Shown in pieces: positions 2,805 through 55,038 of a stretch of 64,000 bases of DNA. The notes below the pieces were generated by a model that searched no databases, was not told where the DNA came from, and saw only the letters and a list, made by a program, of their open reading frames with translations. The translations under genes and the position numbers were made by a program. Position 1 is the stretch's first letter. Each line of letters starts with the position of its first letter. The DNA comes from Candidatus Daviesbacteria bacterium RIFCSPHIGHO2_02_FULL_43_12. GTDB lineage: Bacteria; Patescibacteriota; Microgenomatia; Daviesbacterales; UBA10151. Location of the stretch: assembly GCA_001776775.1 (NCBI GenBank), contig MFDD01000014.1:3684-67683 (forward strand). Reading direction: 5' to 3'.

Positions 2805-4029
2805 GTTTTCCTCGTTTAGGGTCGTGGACGGTAAATACTTTTAACCCCTTCCACCAGATTGAAAATACTGCTCTAACCGGTAAGATGGAAAACAAATAGT
2901 GTATCGTGATCAGCTGCTTTAACCACCAGACCAAAAGACCTGTCATTTCTAAACCAAAGACGTTGGTCAAGGCATACTTTCCACCTACTGCTACAACAAA
3001 AGACGGGTAGGGAGGACTGTATTTTTTTAAGGGCTTGCCTTTGATAGCGAGTTCAATATTCAAAGCTGCCACCTTTCCTTCGCTAATAGCCGACCAGGCC
3101 GCCGGAGGAACGGGAGTATTTTTGGTCTCGTCAATATATTCAGCCATATCCCCAACAACATAAACTTCCGGGTGACCTGCAAGGTTCAAACAAGCTGAGG
3201 TGTGGATCTGTCCTTTTTTGGTAAATTCTACTCCTTTAATCGCCCCATTCAAATTTGCAGCGAGCACCCCGGAGGTCCAAACTAAATAATCATATCCCAG
3301 CGGTTCCTTGTCTTGGCAGTAAATTTGCTTTTCGTCAATTTTGGTAATCATATTCCCTGTCCTTACTTGAACGCCTAGTTTTTCCAGCCGATGTAACGCC
3401 TCTGCCTGTGACCATTCCGGCATGCCGGTCAAGATACTTGGCAAAGCTTCTAAAAGAACTATTTCCGAGTGCGGATGTGGGAGTAAGCTCATCTCTGCAG
3501 CCAACTCTACTCCGCTAAACCCCCCTCCCGCCACCACCACCCGGGTCGGTTTGTCAGTTTGACTAAAAACTTTTTCTAGGTCTGACCGGCAACGCAAAGC
3601 ATCTTCTGTCGTTTTTAAGGGATGGGCATATTCTTTTGTGCCTTCAATTCCGAAAAAATTGGTGGTACTCCCCAAGCTGATAACTAAATAATTATAGCTT
3701 AGGCTTTTAGTTCCTGTCAGAACTGATTTTGTTTCCAGGTCAACCGAGTTAACTGAGTCAACCAGAAATGAAATATTTTTACGGGTGCCAAATATCTGCT
3801 CTAATGGTAAGTTGATAGCCGCTACCAGGGCCTCCTGACTTACCTTAGTGGCATCAAAAGAAGCCGTAGCTACTTCGTAGAGATCGGGGGAGTAGCAGTG
3901 AAAAGGAGATTGATTGATAATAGTGATCAGGGCGAAAGGAAGACGACTAGACAGGTCTAGCGCAGTACGTACCCCCCCAAAACCCGCTCCTAAAATGACA
4001 ATTTCTGGCTTTTCCATTTCTTTTATCAT
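2797..4029 (-). CDS. ndh: type II NADH dehydrogenase (NDH-2) / FAD-dependent pyridine nucleotide-disulfide oxidoreductase
   Basis: Two dinucleotide-binding motifs (IVILGAGFGG and VVVAGGGFSGVELAAE) and a hydrophobic C-terminal tail. Confidence 0.7.
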   Translation of the reverse strand: MIKEMEKPEIVILGAGFGGVRTALDLSSRLPFALITIINQSPFHCYSPDLYEVATASFDATKVSQEALVAAINLPLEQIFGTRKNISFLVDSVNSVDLETKSVLTGTKSLSYNYLVISLGSTTNFFGIEGTKEYAHPLKTTEDALRCRSDLEKVFSQTDKPTRVVVAGGGFSGVELAAEMSLLPHPHSEIVLLEALPSILTGMPEWSQAEALHRLEKLGVQVRTGNMITKIDEKQIYCQDKEPLGYDYLVWTSGVLAANLNGAIKGVEFTKKGQIHTSACLNLAGHPEVYVVGDMAEYIDETKNTPVPPAAWSAISEGKVAALNIELAIKGKPLKKYSPPYPSFVVAVGGKYALTNVFGLEMTGLLVWWLKQLITIHYLFSILPVRAVFSIWWKGLKVFTVHDPKRGKHV

Positions 4030-26451: not shown

Positions 26452-26939
26452 TTTATTCTTTCTCGGCTAGCTCCTATTCCTCTTGAAAACCTGCTACATC
26501 TAACTTCTAAAAGATTGCTTTTATTTATCCTAAAGGATCCTCTTCTGGCACTGGGATCTATCGGTACCAAATAATCATGTCCATGCGGAGTATTCCCTTC
26601 TTCTTGTCCGAAGAGTGTTAACGCTTCTTGAACAGCTCTCTTTGCATCGCTGATCTGTTTTGCTAATGGGACATCTGCTGTATTCTGTATTAAAGGTGCT
26701 AATGGATCCATTTGAACAAGAGCAAAATATTGTCCATCTATTTTCATGATCCTTACACCTATCACTAAATCAGACGGAAGTCTCATTAGTCTTCCTGACC
26801 CATGGTAGCCTATCGGATCTCCAACTCGAAGACATTGCGCCGGAGCAAGATCTTTAAGAAATTGAAAGACAGATAATTTTTCACCCGTCCTTTTAGATGC
26901 TTTTCCTTCTCTGACTGTTCTATGAATTAAAATTTCCAT
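26448..26939 (-). CDS. hypothetical protein (first gene of the Phe/Tyr operon)
   Basis: ORF only. ATGA overlap with the downstream TyrA-PheA gene. Confidence 0.4.
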   Translation of the reverse strand: MEILIHRTVREGKASKRTGEKLSVFQFLKDLAPAQCLRVGDPIGYHGSGRLMRLPSDLVIGVRIMKIDGQYFALVQMDPLAPLIQNTADVPLAKQISDAKRAVQEALTLFGQEEGNTPHGHDYLVPIDPSARRGSFRINKSNLLEVRCSRFSRGIGASRERIK

Positions 26940-26950
26940 ATTTTTCCAAT

Positions 26951-26972
26951 AAAAAACCCCGCATCTGCGGGG
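26951..26972 (-). terminator. intrinsic terminator of the aromatic leader (attenuator), 9 nt upstream of the operon ATG
   Basis: Minus strand reads CCCCGCagatGCGGGG followed by TTTTTT. Confidence 0.65.
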
Positions 26973-27001
26973 CCTCTTTGAGTCTTGGTCTTTTTAAAAG
27001 A

Positions 27002-27073
27002 CTACGACAGATGCCCCTCCTTTCGGAAGTTAAAGTTAAAGTAAAACCAAAAATTATTTACAATCTGTTTCAT
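27002..27073 (-). CDS. leader peptide MKQIVNNFWFYFNFNFRKEGHLS (aromatic-codon-rich attenuator peptide)
   Basis: 23-aa ORF between a canonical promoter and an intrinsic terminator. Seven of nine consecutive codons are Phe/Trp/Tyr. Confidence 0.55.
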   Translation of the reverse strand: MKQIVNNFWFYFNFNFRKEGHLS

Positions 27074-27101
27074 AACTAAAGTGTAGCTTAGCAAATAAAG
27101 G

Positions 27102-27129
27102 ATTATATGTCAAATAATACAGCATTCAA
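27102..27129 (-). promoter_or_regulatory. sigma70-like promoter TTGAAT-16-TATAAT driving the aromatic leader
   Basis: Reverse complement of 27124-27129 is TTGAAT and of 27102-27107 is TATAAT. Spacer is 16 nt. Confidence 0.55.
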
Positions 27130-27160
27130 ATAACTTGGCTTGCGTTGTATAATCAGTATA

Positions 27161-27532
27161 ATGAAATTCATTAATAGCTCGAAAGCTCCAGCAGTTGTAG
27201 GACCATATTCCCATGCTATAGTTAGCAATGGAATGGTTTACCTTTCTGGGTCGATAGGAGTAGATCCACAAACTGGAGATTTGGCAGAAGGAATAGAGAA
27301 TCAAACGAAACAGGTATTAGCCAATTTAAAAGCAGTCTTGAAAGATGCAGGGAGTTCTGTAGATAAAATTGTTTCAGCAAATTGCTATTTGCAAAGCATG
27401 GAAGATTATGCAAAGTTTAACCATGTATATGGTGAATTTTTCGGAAATCACAAACCCGCTCGAACAACGATTGAAGTAGCAGCATTACCAAGAAAAGCGC
27501 TTGTCGAAATATCTTTTATCGCCGAGATTTAA
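27161..27532 (+). CDS. ridA: RidA/YjgF/TdcF family reactive-intermediate (enamine/imine) deaminase
   Basis: PAVVGPYSHAIVSNGMVYLSGSIG...ARTTIEVAALP are RidA motifs. Start set at ATG 27161. A TATAAT at 27148-27153 suggests a leaderless mRNA. Confidence 0.8.
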   Translation: MKFINSSKAPAVVGPYSHAIVSNGMVYLSGSIGVDPQTGDLAEGIENQTKQVLANLKAVLKDAGSSVDKIVSANCYLQSMEDYAKFNHVYGEFFGNHKPARTTIEVAALPRKALVEISFIAEI

Positions 27533-27539
27533 CTAATAT

Positions 27540-27568
27540 TTGACAAATTTAATCGCTTTGCTTAAAAT
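27540..27568 (+). promoter_or_regulatory. sigma70-like promoter TTGACA-17-TAAAAT immediately after ridA
   Basis: TTGACA at 27540-27545 and TAAAAT at 27563-27568. Confidence 0.55.
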
Positions 27569-27575
27569 ACATTTT

Positions 27576-27650
27576 ATGTTTAGAAAGATTTTAAATCTTA
27601 ACCTCATTATAGAGCTCCTTAGCAGGAGCAAATCAGGGAGGTTTGTTTAA
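27576..27650 (+). CDS. leader peptide MFRKILNLNLIIELLSRSKSGRFV (Leu/Ile-codon-rich attenuator peptide)
   Basis: 24-aa ORF whose stop codon lies inside the antiterminator 5' strand. Codons run ILNLNLIIELL. Confidence 0.45.
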   Translation: MFRKILNLNLIIELLSRSKSGRFV

Positions 27651-27681
27651 GTATTTTTAAAAATACTTAAGAAAGGAATAA

Positions 27682-27704
27682 CCTCCCACTCGGGAGGTTT
27701 TTTT
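27682..27704 (+). terminator. intrinsic terminator of the Leu/Ile-type leader, 8 nt upstream of the downstream ATG
   Basis: CCTCCCactcGGGAGG followed by TTTTTTT. The 5' strand is shared with the alternative pairing GGGAGGTT(27636-27643)/AACCTCCC(27680-27687). Confidence 0.65.
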
Positions 27705-27712
27705 ATACCAAA

Positions 27713-29296
27713 ATGACAGCAATTATAAACGAGCGACAGGGTGCAAGACCCAGCACTCCCCAACAAAGAGCTGCAACGGTTTTTCTGAGGGATAGATTCA
27801 ATGCCTTTGATGAGAGATGGCTTGTTGGACACAAAGGGGACCATGCTTCTAACCTGCATGACCTGGGAATCATTGGTCAGAGAGTTCATGTTGCCCATGT
27901 ACATAGTACTCTTGGTGTTGATGCAGATCGGACTTACAAACCGCCAGAAGAAACCTCTGATTCCTATGAGGGACTCCTGACAGGAGCTAATCCCGGATTG
28001 TCCGGAGAGGTAAGCAGAGTAAGAGCTGCACAAATGAGGGTTGTAGTTCTAATGCCTTTTCCCAACTCCGACTTTGAGGGTATGATTGCAAGAGCAAAGG
28101 CAGGAAGATATTTCGTTTCAACAGCGCCGATAGAAAGTTTCGAAACTTTTGAACCAATCGAGAACAAGATATCCTTTGCCAGAATACTTCAGGCAGCTTT
28201 ACAAGGAACTCCTCATACGAGAAATCTAATTCCCTGGACCATACATCAACCTCATTGGGGATTAGATGACGTTAGGCGGAATATGGGAGTAGACCCAGGG
28301 AGTGCAATTTTCTTTCAAAAAGCTATCTCAGGTGGAGGAGATGGGACAGCAAGGGTGAATGATCGATCCAACTTTAATGAACTTTTAAGTAACCCCTCTT
28401 GGATGCAGGCAGCTCGACGAGGGAAACTAAAGGCCTCAATGGCAGTAGAAGGTGCTTATCCAGCAAATGGAACCGGATGTATCGTACCTACCCCGGATGG
28501 CGGTTGCAAAGTTTTGGTTGATCCATTATCTCATAAGCCTGTTGGGTTAGAGAGTGTTGGAGCAAAACCAGGTAGCGGAGCCGGTAATGACTGGGGTACG
28601 CCTTTCCCTAGAGCTGTTACCGATCAATATATTGCAATGGTTTCTCGTCTAGGAAAGTATTTTTATACTACTTTTGGCTACACTGGTATTTTTGGTCCAG
28701 ATGGATTAGTTGGAGCAGATTCAACCTATCGTATGACGGAAAGTAACTCCAGATGGCAAGGTACTACTCCATATCAAACTCAAAATGCTTTGATGAATGG
28801 ACGTTTGCCGATCGAGCTGATACATTACATGGTTAAACTTTCAGTAAATGACTCTCACTTACTTGGACAAGTCAATGATATCGTTGGAGATGCAGACTCT
28901 TATAATCAAAGAGCCTTCACAGAAAGAGGAGGGTTTTATATTAAAGTTGGAGGGCCTAAAACCAAGAAGGAAGTTAGGGAGGACTTAAATGGACCATGGC
29001 GGTGGGATGGAGATCGGTTACATAGACTAAAAAGAGATGGATATTTAACACCTATGCGAATTTATACGAGAGATTACGCAGGAGCTCAAGACCTAACTAA
29101 AGATGATAAAACCGTCTGGATTAAGGCACCTAAGGTAGGCGAGGTTGTAGGAGGAGGATTAGTGGCTGTCGGATACATAACAGGTAGCGATATAAATGTC
29201 TTTGATGCAAATAAGCCAGAGGTTACTTCGGACGGGCATAAGTTATATACTCAAATGAACCAGTTGATGTATAGCCAACGGAGTTCATGGAAATAA
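27713..29296 (+). CDS. hypothetical 527-aa protein, no recognisable family
   Basis: Long ORF whose GC content and codon usage look somewhat higher than neighbouring genes. No signal peptide. Overlaps the downstream AstE/AspA-like gene by 10 nt. Confidence 0.5.
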   Translation: MTAIINERQGARPSTPQQRAATVFLRDRFNAFDERWLVGHKGDHASNLHDLGIIGQRVHVAHVHSTLGVDADRTYKPPEETSDSYEGLLTGANPGLSGEVSRVRAAQMRVVVLMPFPNSDFEGMIARAKAGRYFVSTAPIESFETFEPIENKISFARILQAALQGTPHTRNLIPWTIHQPHWGLDDVRRNMGVDPGSAIFFQKAISGGGDGTARVNDRSNFNELLSNPSWMQAARRGKLKASMAVEGAYPANGTGCIVPTPDGGCKVLVDPLSHKPVGLESVGAKPGSGAGNDWGTPFPRAVTDQYIAMVSRLGKYFYTTFGYTGIFGPDGLVGADSTYRMTESNSRWQGTTPYQTQNALMNGRLPIELIHYMVKLSVNDSHLLGQVNDIVGDADSYNQRAFTERGGFYIKVGGPKTKKEVREDLNGPWRWDGDRLHRLKRDGYLTPMRIYTRDYAGAQDLTKDDKTVWIKAPKVGEVVGGGLVAVGYITGSDINVFDANKPEVTSDGHKLYTQMNQLMYSQRSSWK

Positions 29297-30237
29297 CAGA
29301 GATAAAAACCAACATTGGAAATACAGCCTCAGGGACACCTCTGCTAATCAACGGCTACCATCTTAAGGGTTCTCATCCCGGGAAAAAGATATATATACAA
29401 GGAGGTATTCATGGAGGTGAAGTTACTATTTGGATTTTTCAAGAATTATTTAAATACTTTTCTGAACATGAGATCCAGGGTGAGGTTTTTTTAATCCCCG
29501 TAGCTAACCCTGTTGCTTGGAATCAGCGTATTTACTTTAGTACTTTAGGTAAATTTGATTTCTATATGGGTAAAGACTGGAATCGAAACTTTCCAGGAAA
29601 TGAAGATGGCACTCTTGGAGAAAGGATTGCTAAAAAACTTTTTGATATTGCTTCAAGAGCAGATTTTATTATCGATCTTCATACATCGAGAGATAGTTTC
29701 CCATTTGCAATATTATCTTCTAAAAATGATCTCGCATACGCGCAGAAGATTGGACTTGAATATAACCTTCTATTAGATCTCGACGATCCTAAGTTTAGTA
29801 GCTATAGAAGTACACTAACAGGTCAGGGAAGCTTATCAAATGCTCCTAGTATTGCCATAGAGTGCGGGAGGCATGACTCCTATAATGAAGAATACTGCAA
29901 AGAAGTTACCAACGGTTTACTTCGCTTAATGAGCCACCTCGGCATTATCAATGACAAAAAGATTCCTCCTACAACTAAAAAGGTAAAATATTATTCAAGG
30001 TTAAAAACCTATAGATCCCCCAATGGTGGGTTCATAAAATTCAATAAGCATGCGGGAGATGAATACAAGAAAGGGGAAATTTTATTTGAGCTTATTAACC
30101 CGTCTGATCTAGGTTCTGCAACTGTAGTGTTCGCCGAAGAAGATGGAATTCTGCAAAAGAAGTCCCCAACTTTTATCTATATGCCAGGTGATGACGTCCT
30201 TGAAGTATTACCGCTTACTAATATAAAGTTCATATAA
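29287..30237 (+). CDS. succinylglutamate desuccinylase/aspartoacylase (AstE/AspA) family zinc hydrolase (M14-like)
   Basis: N-terminal zinc-site GGIHGGE (H-x-x-E), second His in IDLHTS, and ECGRHDS; about 316 aa. Confidence 0.6.
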   Translation: MEITEIKTNIGNTASGTPLLINGYHLKGSHPGKKIYIQGGIHGGEVTIWIFQELFKYFSEHEIQGEVFLIPVANPVAWNQRIYFSTLGKFDFYMGKDWNRNFPGNEDGTLGERIAKKLFDIASRADFIIDLHTSRDSFPFAILSSKNDLAYAQKIGLEYNLLLDLDDPKFSSYRSTLTGQGSLSNAPSIAIECGRHDSYNEEYCKEVTNGLLRLMSHLGIINDKKIPPTTKKVKYYSRLKTYRSPNGGFIKFNKHAGDEYKKGEILFELINPSDLGSATVVFAEEDGILQKKSPTFIYMPGDDVLEVLPLTNIKFI

Positions 30238-53441: not shown

Positions 53442-53930
53442 GTGAGAAAGGCTACTCTAGTTTTTTTAATACGAGGCAAAGAGCTACTTTTAGCGATGAA
53501 AAAGACAGGCTTTGGTAAGGGTAAATGGAATGGTGTCGGAGGTAAAGTAGAACCGGGTGAATCCGTTGAGCAAGCAGCCAAGAGAGAAGCCCTCGAGGAG
53601 ATTGGGGTTACGATTACAATCTCCGATCTTCTAAAAGTTGCCGATATTCAGTTTTTGTTTCCTCAAGGTTTAGATAAAAACAACAATCAACAGGTCAGTG
53701 TCTTTTTGGTTAATAATTGGCAGGGAGAACCAACAGAGTCTAGCGAAATGAAACCCAAATGGTTTAAGACCAGTGAGATCCCTTACCAACAAATGTGGTC
53801 CGATGATAAGTTATGGTTACCTGAAGTGTTAAGAGGTCGTAAGATCTCTGCGGAGTTTACTTTTGATAAAAAAGAAGAGATAAGTAAATTTCTAATTACA
53901 GATTTAGCGCTGAAGCCAGTTACTGCTTAA
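53442..53930 (+). CDS. NUDIX hydrolase (MutT-like)
   Basis: Nudix box GGKVEPGESVEQAAKREALEEIGV. Confidence 0.75.
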   Translation: MRKATLVFLIRGKELLLAMKKTGFGKGKWNGVGGKVEPGESVEQAAKREALEEIGVTITISDLLKVADIQFLFPQGLDKNNNQQVSVFLVNNWQGEPTESSEMKPKWFKTSEIPYQQMWSDDKLWLPEVLRGRKISAEFTFDKKEEISKFLITDLALKPVTA

Positions 53931-55038
53931 CCACTTTTTCCCAGGAGAATTCATCGCGACCGAAATGTCCGTAAGAAGAGGTTGCAAGATAGACCGGTTT
54001 ACGCAAATCTAGTCCACTTAAAATTCCTTCAACTGAAGTATCCAGAATTTTGGACATAAAGTCTTGAATCGCTTCCGACGAAACTTTGGCCGTTCCGAAG
54101 GTCTCAACCTCTTGCATTAAAGGTTTTTTAGCTCCGATAAAAAAAGCTAAGCGAACTTCGGCTTTGCTGGCTAAGCCATTGGCGACAATATTTTTAGCTA
54201 AAAACCTGGCCGCATATGCCCCGGACCGATCGACTTTGGTTGGGTCTTTACCGGAAAAACATCCACCACCAACCCGAGCATACCCGCCATACCCATCAAC
54301 GACAATCTTCCTACCAGTTAGTCCTGTATCGGCCGAGGGACCACCGTTATGCCAAACTCCGGTGCCATTAACGATCAAATCCTCCATCGACACCTCAAAG
54401 CCGTATTTTTTTAGAACCTCGGTCACGATCTTTTCATAAACGTCATTTTTGACTTGCTCAAGGGTAATTTCTTCTTTATGTGGAACAGCGATCACTACTT
54501 TGGAAACGCTGACTGGCTTACCATCTTGGTAGTCAACAGTTACCTGAGTTTTACCGTCCGGACGTAAATAATCTAGGATACTTTTTTCTCTAACCTCGTC
54601 AATTCGGCGGGCTAACTGGTGGGCGATCATAATTGGCATGGGCATAAGCTCGGGGGTCTCATTACAAGCAAAACCAAACATCATCCCCTGATCTCCTGCT
54701 CCCCGCTCTTCCATCACCCCAACGGCGATCTCCGGAGACTGAGCGTGGACATAGACATCGATGGGGGACTGGTCGGTAAATTCAAATTTAGGGTCGGTAT
54801 AGCCCAAGCGGACAACCTGCTCCTGGGCAGTTTTTAGAATATCTATTTTAGCAGTACTGGTAGTTTCCCCAGCAATCACCAAACGTCCATAAGTGGCAAG
54901 TGATTCGATAGCTACTCGACCCCGGGGATCTTGGGTTAAAATAGCGTCAACGACAGCGTCAGAGATGGCATCGCAGACTTTATCGGGATGACCGGCACAA
55001 ACTGATTCGGATGTAAAGGTAGTGTTATTATTTGGCAT
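53920..55038 (-). CDS. metK: S-adenosylmethionine synthetase
   Basis: FTSESV...GHPDKVCDAISDAVVDAIL and the rest of the MAT core. Start moved to Met 55038; the 14-aa ORF-track extension is the riboswitch terminator read in frame. Confidence 0.9.
   Translation of the reverse strand: MPNNNTTFTSESVCAGHPDKVCDAISDAVVDAILTQDPRGRVAIESLATYGRLVIAGETTSTAKIDILKTAQEQVVRLGYTDPKFEFTDQSPIDVYVHAQSPEIAVGVMEERGAGDQGMMFGFACNETPELMPMPIMIAHQLARRIDEVREKSILDYLRPDGKTQVTVDYQDGKPVSVSKVVIAVPHKEEITLEQVKNDVYEKIVTEVLKKYGFEVSMEDLIVNGTGVWHNGGPSADTGLTGRKIVVDGYGGYARVGGGCFSGKDPTKVDRSGAYAARFLAKNIVANGLASKAEVRLAFFIGAKKPLMQEVETFGTAKVSSEAIQDFMSKILDTSVEGILSGLDLRKPVYLATSSYGHFGRDEFSWEKVVKQ

Follow-up and report, generated by a model that had tools for sequence, protein, structure and literature searches.

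Introduction

The closest described counterparts of the element reported here are the leader-peptide attenuators of enterobacteria, among them the ilvL leader of ilvGMEDA, the ivbL leader of ilvBN, the leuL leader of the leu operon, and the trp, phe, his and thr leaders. These share a promoter-proximal open reading frame (ORF) rich in the sensed codons, mutually exclusive 1:2, 2:3 and 3:4 pairings, and a terminator before the first structural gene; a ribosome that finishes the ORF masks segment 2 from its position on the stop codon. The ilvL leader senses isoleucine and leucine, with or without valine. We have analyzed a 64,000-nucleotide stretch of contig MFDD01000014.1 from Candidatus Daviesbacteria bacterium RIFCSPHIGHO2_02_FULL_43_12, a member of the Candidate Phyla Radiation (CPR; Patescibacteria), and this whole stretch is called the window below. 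In it, a 24-codon Ile/Leu-rich ORF and a terminator precede a gene for a divergent ATP-grasp ligase and a second gene for an AstE/AspA-family hydrolase. The site is very likely, with a probability of roughly 0.8, an Ile/Leu-responsive, ribosome-mediated transcription attenuator. Like the enterobacterial ilv, leu and trp types, it has a codon-enriched ORF, four segments, a terminator, and a stop codon placed to mask segment 2. Unlike them, it belongs to no Rfam family, its ORF has no Shine-Dalgarno sequence, its targets are not ilv or leu genes, and it is found in a CPR bacterium. A further difference from the known cases is that some loci related to this one (L032 and L035) carry the unit as a tandem duplicate.

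Similar elements have been described outside the enterobacteria. In Staphylococcus aureus, an Ile/Leu-rich attenuator peptide at ilvD was proposed to respond to uncharged tRNA-Ile and tRNA-Leu; its ORF has a ribosome-binding site, and the terminator lies 52 nt past the stop codon (PMC5794164). Leader peptides have been predicted for ilvB and leuA in Actinobacteria (PMC1262725), and an upstream ORF of ilvB is described in Corynebacterium (PMC10272879). The Daviesbacteria site resembles all of these in having an Ile/Leu-rich short ORF followed by a terminator and an antiterminator. Those elements control the biosynthesis of branched-chain amino acids; here, by contrast, a seemingly leaderless ORF precedes the genes of an ATP-grasp ligase and a hydrolase. 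In mycobacteria, leaderless polycysteine short ORFs stand at the 5’ ends of operons, where stalling alters the downstream RNA structure and turns the operon on; they sense cysteine and control translation rather than termination (bioRxiv 10.1101/834739). The Daviesbacteria leader is like them an apparently leaderless sensory ORF rich in one kind of codon, but the predicted switch is an intrinsic terminator with a U-tract, and the amino acids are isoleucine and leucine, not cysteine. The mechanism we propose is of a known kind; its occurrence in this lineage, the genes that it would control and a leader ORF that looks leaderless are new. Full-text searches of a literature library found no paper linking leader-peptide attenuation with CPR or Patescibacteria.

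Anatomy of the leader locus

The elements of the locus, in window coordinates, are as follows.

27161..27532, + strand: ridA, given for context (Pfam Ribonuc_L-PSP, NCBIfam Rid family), with its TAA at 27530-27532
27540..27568, + strand: sigma-70-type promoter TTGACA-17-TAAAAT, 11/12 match
27576..27650, + strand: leader ORF of 24 codons plus stop, translated as MFRKILNLNLIIELLSRSKSGRFV
27588..27620, + strand: regulatory codon run ILNLNLIIELL, the proposed stalling zone (codons 5-15, Ile/Leu 8/11)
27600..27605, + strand: segment 1, AACCUC, within codons Asn9-Leu10, pairing with segment 2 in the minimum-free-energy fold if the ribosome is absent
27614..27629, + strand: inner hairpin GCUCCU-UAGC-AGGAGC, nested in the 1:2 helix in the minimum-free-energy and centroid folds
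27636..27643, + strand: segment 2, RNA GGGAGGUU (DNA GGGAGGTT), the antiterminator 5’ strand, in codons 21-23 with the stop codon 5 nt later
27647..27670, + strand: perfect 24-nt palindrome TTAAGTATTTTTAAAAATACTTAA, an A/U hairpin nested in the antiterminator loop
27680..27687, + strand: segment 3, RNA AACCUCCC (DNA AACCTCCC), the strand that can enter either the antiterminator (2:3) or the terminator (3:4)
27692..27704, + strand: segment 4, RNA GGGAGGUU (DNA GGGAGGTT at 27692-99), and T7 (27698-27704), from the terminator scan

The promoter is the top sigma-70 match in a scan of the 8 kb between 24 and 32 kb of the window. The leader ATG lies 7 nt past the end of its -10 hexamer, and inspection of the sequence found no Shine-Dalgarno sequence before it. 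Segment 2 forms 8 perfect base pairs with 27680-87. The terminator scan reads AACCTCCC-ACTC-GGGAGGTT followed by T7; the final two U of segment 4 are the start of the 7-U tract, which ends 8 nt 5’ of the ATG at 27713. The 527-codon gene that begins there has no promoter of its own. A GGAGG inside segment 4 lies 14 nt from this downstream ATG, an arrangement that is not general across the loci described below. The palindrome is unique in the window, and none of 100 shuffles holds a match, even when 3 mismatches are allowed.

The leader ORF stands out by its composition. Of the 389 small ORFs with an ATG start in the window, only 0.5%, the leader ORF among them, have six Ile or Leu residues within 8 codons. 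A blind scan for an Ile/Leu-rich small ORF followed by a terminator returned the leader site as the sole match in the 64-kb window; run on the window together with all 38 comparison loci, the same scan gave 17 distinct matches, 11 of which are among the leader units compared below.

A sequence-only reading of this DNA had proposed a Leu/Ile attenuator acting on the downstream unknown protein and deacylase. The promoter, the 24-codon ORF, the three-way complementarity, the terminator and the palindrome all lie where it had placed them, and the Leu/Ile richness that it counted in 8 of 11 consecutive codons is that of codons 5-15. Its list was correct as far as it went; segment 1 and the inner hairpin had escaped it.

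Predicted folds of the leader RNA

The leader RNA folds at -42.1 kcal/mol (z = -5.0; none of 200 shuffles is as good), and this minimum-free-energy fold holds the 1:2 helix, the palindrome hairpin and the 3:4 terminator. The 1:2 helix joins AACCUC at 27600-05 to GAGGUU of segment 2, and it is this segment 1, found by folding, that completes the classical four-segment 1:2, 2:3 and 3:4 layout. In isolation, the predicted energies are -16.0 kcal/mol for 1:2 with its inner hairpin, -18.8 for the antiterminator, -13.0 for the terminator and -5.8 for the palindrome hairpin. It is possible that the inner hairpin at 27614-29 acts as an RNA-polymerase pause hairpin.

Ribosome position was modeled as a 30-nt footprint on a nascent transcript ending before segment 4. 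With the footprint on I5, L10, I11, I12 or L15, segment 2 pairs with 8 of the 8 nucleotides of segment 3, and when the ribosome is on Ile11 or Leu15 the palindrome forms a nested hairpin within this antiterminator. When the footprint is on the stop codon, it hides segment 2 together with the 5’ half of the palindrome; the terminator 5’ arm is then unpaired with segment 2, with 3 of its 8 bases pairing locally at 27675-77. The palindrome hairpin is present in every other predicted state. The alternative folds that the sequence-only reading had called for are therefore both obtained, the antiterminator with a stalled ribosome and the freed arm with a ribosome at the stop codon, and its view that a ribosome finishing the peptide favors termination agrees with the masking of segment 2.

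In each of the 12 leader units that we compared (see below), a switch is predicted in which 5 or more bases of the terminator 5’ arm have upstream partners while the ribosome is stalled and none pairs with segment 2 once it is at the stop codon. Each unit is matched by 2-11% of its dinucleotide shuffles (Fisher combined p 6e-6).

Conservation across loci

Exact-protein look-ups of homologues of the ATP-grasp protein that are 41-52% identical gave nine further loci (L012, L013, L014, L032, L033, L034, L035, L036 and L037). With the window, these make up 10 loci holding 12 leader units directly upstream of ATP-grasp genes. The module is present in all nine of the others, and consists of a short ORF rich in Ile, Leu, Val and Phe codons, a purine-rich strand at or near its stop codon, and a terminator with a U-tract. 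The leader peptides are MLQSNSFIIVLLITH, MNQAFLLIALFVLFIGDRAHAGGLTN and MSNRNSAFIIVLLSHA in three loci and ...LVLVNLLAIVLIMVATG, MNNLNKLTIITLILVFN, MLRNSVIFGLVILGSKELG and MKNSIQQVQLNTLLIINLIPLYSKEGT in others. Two loci carry two complete ORF and terminator units in tandem before the ATP-grasp gene, at L032 3654-3980 (MYKKIAQKKGAPAKTIAIASFIIIVIFIL and MNHISIFLRSLPLPQSFIIFIGFILLL) and L035 262-491 (MTSFVANILIALLISV and MYQVQHTNLIILLAAFRGGG). Leu makes up 18% of the pooled residues of 10 leaders, Ile 16%, Phe 8% and Val 6%, and the same Ile/Leu-type enrichment is seen in two further leaders beyond these 10. Six Ile, Leu or Val residues in 8 codons occur in 2-9% of the ATG small ORFs of each source sequence. 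The alternation with Asn to which the sequence-only reading had drawn attention recurs in a few other leaders, most clearly in L037, and is not a defining feature of the module.

Nucleotide sequences have diverged between the loci even though the position of the module is kept. In a MAFFT alignment of the 12 attenuators the mean column identity is 45%, which is too poor for a pair count or a covariance model, and primary sequence is almost unconserved outside the stems and the U-tract. The stems themselves vary by locus (GGGAGG, GGCGGG, GAGAGG, GAGCCCGGG, GTGGGTA), and their sequences co-vary between loci. When the 40-nt zone around each stop codon was paired with the terminator 5’ arm of its own unit, the mean duplex energy was -13.0 kcal/mol, compared with -9.3 +/- 0.8 for permuted pairings, and none of 20,000 permutations was as good. 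The stop codon keeps its position relative to segment 2; in the 10 units measured, it falls between 15 nt inside and 8 nt before that segment. For half of the units, the search for the longest ungapped complement between segments 2 and 3 gave individually weak results (p 0.15-0.54), and constrained folding together with the cross-unit duplex test was used in its place. It had been argued beforehand that a leader ORF lacking conservation would count against an attenuator; the ORF is kept in the nine orthologous loci, and with the geometry of the folds and the constrained folds this conservation supports a Leu/Ile attenuator in control of the downstream pair.

The genes 5’ of the module differ from locus to locus and include a methyltransferase, a PIN protein, a glutamine amidotransferase and others; ridA precedes the leader in none of the other nine loci. 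In L037 the AstE gene comes first and the leader lies between it and the ATP-grasp gene. The changing upstream gene and the order in L037 indicate that the element belongs to the ATP-grasp gene and not to ridA. 

The comparison of loci also bears on whether the hairpin is simply a constitutive terminator of ridA, with the ORF and the complementarity arising by chance. The hairpin stands 148 nt past the ridA stop codon, ridA has no other terminator ahead of the leader promoter, and the shuffle test on the window unit is weak, at 11%; all of this would suit such an account. Against it, a near-consensus promoter separates ridA from the hairpin, the downstream gene starts 8 nt past the U-tract with no promoter of its own, and the module recurs, with co-variation, in nine loci where ridA is not upstream. 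The comparative data largely refute a ridA terminator, and we regard it as highly improbable.

About as improbable is a further account, in which the product of the short ORF is itself functional, as a hydrophobic micro-protein (a membrane peptide, for instance), and the hairpin is the terminator of this ORF. The peptides are hydrophobic and this character is conserved, as that account would expect. However, the hydrophobic runs span 6-11 residues in peptides of 15-29 amino acids, which is under membrane-span length in several loci, the sequences are unconserved, tandem duplicates exist, and the co-variation of the stop-codon zone with the terminator arm is left unexplained.

A real switch might instead be set by a factor acting in trans, with the short ORF incidental; an RNA-binding protein, a tRNA or a small ligand could play this part. 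The alternative pairings need no ribosome, the leader AUG lacks a Shine-Dalgarno sequence, and the unique palindrome could bind a dimeric protein. Nevertheless, a common ligand or protein site is unlikely where hardly any primary sequence is conserved. What is kept is the ORF, its run of Ile, Leu, Val and Phe, and the position of the stop codon relative to segment 2, and the palindrome is absent from the other loci. Nor did Rfam return a T-box or other riboswitch at E <= 10 within 26900-27760, a region that includes the leader of ~125 nt. Taken together, these points make a trans-acting factor improbable and favor a ribosome-mediated attenuator.

At gathering thresholds, no Rfam model matched at the leader. 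Phe_leader (RF01859) scores 35.0 bits here and 33.6 bits at a neighboring aromatic leader, compared with a gathering threshold of 55, and we take these as sub-threshold structural matches; an E-value scan gave sub-threshold matches to Phe_leader, RNAI and similar families that are hairpin-driven. Leu_leader (RF00512) gave no match at the leader site, even sub-threshold.

The palindrome was also considered as an operator or as the main mechanism, and rejected: the window holds no second copy with 3 mismatches allowed, its half-sites are marginally above chance, and it is unconserved elsewhere. The sequence-only reading, which had raised the operator, described it correctly as a perfect 24-nt palindrome in the antiterminator loop; as a sequence it is not conserved in the other loci, and its likeliest role is that of a nested hairpin by which the antiterminator loop is made shorter.

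Apparently leaderless start of the leader ORF

Nine units are promoter-proximal. In seven of them, the leader ATG stands 7, 7, 9, 9, 6, 10 and 12 nt from the -10 hexamer, and in the remaining two 20 and 31 nt. In L012, L013, L014, L036 and L037, a promoter matching at 11-12 of 12 positions precedes the leader ATG by 6-12 nt, and the first unit of L035 (L035a) has an 8/12 match 6 nt before its ATG. This spacing suggests that the leader ORF would be read from an mRNA that is leaderless or nearly so; the sequence-only reading had marked the start as possibly leaderless, and the seven units at 6-12 nt now back that suggestion comparatively.

The ridA gene has a similar arrangement. TTCAAA-17-TATAAT (window 27125-27163) ends 7 nt before the ATG at 27161, with no Shine-Dalgarno sequence, and the ridA start also looks leaderless. 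This spacing suggests that leaderless mRNAs may be common in this Daviesbacteria genome.

The putatively regulated genes

Two overlapping genes follow the terminator.

27713..29296, + strand: first gene, a 527-aa divergent ATP-grasp carboxylate-amine ligase by predicted structure and motif
29287..30237, + strand: second gene, a 316-aa AstE/AspA-family metallohydrolase, overlapping the first gene by 10 nt

Four Candidatus Daviesbacteria metagenome-assembled genomes (MAGs) encode the 527-aa protein in identical form, as a hypothetical protein. It has no Pfam or NCBIfam match, and a sequence-profile search of the PDB was empty. Its structure model (pLDDT 90.5) is that of an ATP-grasp ligase; biotin carboxylases and YwfE take the top ranks in Foldseek, with at most 16% identity to any solved structure. 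E343, N345 and R347 (EINPR) are invariant. As modeled, the protein belongs to the ATP-grasp superfamily and carries its Mg/ATP-binding E-x-N motif. Its own family is a rare one and counts 39 representatives below E 1e-30 among 1.84 billion.

The 316-aa protein matches Pfam AstE_AspA_cat (PF24827) at 83.5 bits, where the cut-off is 25 (E 1.8e-23), and falls far under the equivalog cut-offs for DoeB and aspartoacylase. Its closest solved structures, 3FMC and 3LWU, have been discussed as possible hydrolases of the cyanophycin dipeptide beta-Asp-Arg (PMC9974463). Set beside the described group of PurK, PurT, PylC and L-amino-acid-ligase ATP-grasp enzymes and AstE/AspA (CphZ-like) hydrolases, the pair differs in its ligase, which is the member that no Pfam or NCBIfam family claims and whose identity to solved structures is so low.

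The partnership of the two genes is conserved. An AstE/AspA gene adjoins the ATP-grasp gene in 8 of the 8 other leader loci with a visible neighbor, directly downstream in 7 and upstream in L037; the contig of L036 ends at the ATP-grasp gene. Pfam scans of 40 window proteins found no ilv, leu or branched-chain amino acid transporter genes, and the sequence-only reading was right that the regulated genes are not biosynthetic genes for these amino acids, the pair being instead an ATP-grasp ligase and an AstE/AspA hydrolase. If the pair answers to Ile/Leu supply, a ligase next to a hydrolase of (iso)peptides or N-acyl amino acids suggests, at low confidence, that the two may be an amino-acid or isopeptide ligase and its matching hydrolase, helping an auxotrophic CPR cell to obtain or spare isoleucine and leucine.

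The attenuator also bears on gene models. In L012 the called GTG start at 4001 lies 5’ of the terminator and overlaps the leader stop codon. The database models of several ATP-grasp homologues, P0002 (565 aa) and probably P0005 (597 aa) among them, appear over-extended at the 5’ end, and L032 is a further locus with such a called start. The attenuator model corrects the starts of several homologues that were called across the terminator, as in L012.

More distant homologues have other neighborhoods. Protein-alignment scans of genome collections and metagenomes gave 28 loci at 27-41% identity, in Saccharibacteria, Taylorbacteria, Moraniibacteriota and one ‘Gammaproteobacteria’ MAG, none of which has a leader or terminator. 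Distant ATP-grasp homologues in L004-L011, L026-L031, L038 and L003 (27-39% identity, mostly Saccharibacteria) adjoin a GT4 glycosyltransferase, and no AstE/AspA hydrolase stands beside them. In L004 (Saccharibacteria), whose neighbors were scanned, a nucleotidyltransferase and a NUDIX hydrolase follow, and sibling loci hold ORFs of the same sizes. The GT4 neighborhood without AstE/AspA suggests that this branch of the family has a different function. In the Saccharibacteria loci L008-L011 and L027-L030, ~180 nt before the ATP-grasp homologue are conserved with no long ORF and a TTGACA-17-TA(A/T)AAT promoter; this stretch holds neither a leader ORF nor a terminator.

Other leaders in the window

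A second leader lies on the minus strand ~500 nt from the Ile/Leu leader, at window 27071-26940. It encodes MKQIVNNFWFYFNFNFRKEGHLS, ending at a stop codon and containing the run FWFYFNFNF, and its terminator, CCCCGC-AGAT-GCGGGG followed by T6, stands just before the ATG at 26939. The operon that follows encodes 163-aa and 251-aa proteins without a Pfam match, a prephenate dehydrogenase-dehydratase-ACT fusion, and a class IV aminotransferase. An aromatic-rich leader before an aromatic operon indicates that leader composition tracks the pathway in this genome.

The fit of the aromatic leader to its operon helps in weighing whether the Ile/Leu leader senses general translation stress, in the manner of the erm and cat leaders that respond to an antibiotic or toxin, with the operon serving a stress or resistance function. 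In the folds, any slowing of the ribosome inside the ORF gives the same antiterminator, and the regulated genes are not biosynthetic; both are compatible with stress sensing. Drug-sensing leaders, however, keep a specific arrest motif, where here only richness in Ile, Leu, Val and Phe is kept, and the neighboring leader argues for sensing that is specific to the amino acid. We therefore judge a stress-sensing leader to be quite improbable.

Upstream of metK (55038..53920, minus strand), a terminator AGCCTCT-TGATC-AGAGGTT with a T run lies 6 nt before the gene. The upstream RNA (window 55190-55044, minus strand) scores 36.6 bits with the SAM-I/IV riboswitch RF01725, for which the gathering threshold is 41.1 (E 1.5e-4), and is probably a divergent SAM riboswitch that falls under the standard Rfam threshold.

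Discussion

The sequence anatomy, the predicted folds and the conservation of the module before ATP-grasp genes all point to ribosome-mediated attenuation in response to isoleucine and leucine. We infer that the leader ORF is translated, that the amino acids are sensed by kinetic coupling of translation with transcription, and that what is sensed is the supply of charged tRNA-Ile and tRNA-Leu; in the relatives, Val and Phe are probably sensed as well. On this model, the transcript would begin at or next to the leader AUG, and a ribosome would translate the 24-codon ORF as RNA polymerase nears the terminator. When Ile- and Leu-tRNA are plentiful, the ribosome would run to the stop codon and mask segment 2, segments 3 and 4 would pair, and transcription would stop at the U-tract, 8 nt before the ATP-grasp gene. 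When isoleucine or leucine is scarce, the ribosome would stall in ILNLNLIIELL, cover segment 1 and leave segment 2 free. The resulting helix of segments 2 and 3, enclosing the palindrome hairpin, would block the terminator, and the ATP-grasp and AstE/AspA genes would be transcribed. Where the ORF is untranslated, as on transcripts reading through from ridA, 1:2 and 3:4 would both form and transcription would terminate. Since ridA has no terminator of its own, its transcripts would enter the attenuator and end there.

Several points weigh against this model. The support is computational throughout, consisting of sequence anatomy, predicted folds and comparison. Ile and Leu codons are common in A+T-rich DNA, and the enrichment of Leu could in part have been selected for RNA pairing rather than sensing, which is conceivable because the C/U-rich Leu codons CUU and CUC also serve as segment 1. 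By the lenient criterion used here, 34 of 300 dinucleotide shuffles (11%) reproduce the switch of the window unit, so that the switch in the window taken singly is not very rare and its significance rests on the comparative set. The 12 units of that set are not fully independent, as they include tandem duplicates and L012 resembles L014, and the second units of the tandem pairs have no recognizable promoter or Shine-Dalgarno sequence. The leader AUG lacks a Shine-Dalgarno sequence, and it is promoter spacing that suggests leaderless initiation. The homologues at 27-41% identity have no leader or terminator upstream, and nothing known connects the regulated genes with branched-chain amino acids.

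It is tempting to speculate about what such a switch would serve. Perhaps, and we offer this tentatively, the pair constitutes a new Ile/Leu-starvation response of CPR bacteria (Microgenomates), possibly one that makes and cleaves an amino-acid conjugate or isopeptide, by which cells unable to synthesize branched-chain amino acids could obtain, store or spare them. With the same reserve, this may also be the first case in the Candidate Phyla Radiation for which ribosome-mediated attenuation from a leaderless leader ORF is documented.

Gene regulation in CPR bacteria and Patescibacteria is little known. The locus described here and the adjacent aromatic leader argue that these reduced, largely uncultured bacteria use classical ribosome-coupled sensing of amino acids, with apparently leaderless ORFs. 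For the uncharacterized pair of ATP-grasp protein and hydrolase, the attenuator would be a first functional clue. It provides a functional label that ties an unannotated ATP-grasp family and its partner hydrolase to the availability of isoleucine and leucine, and it may thereby point enzymologists to a class of substrate.

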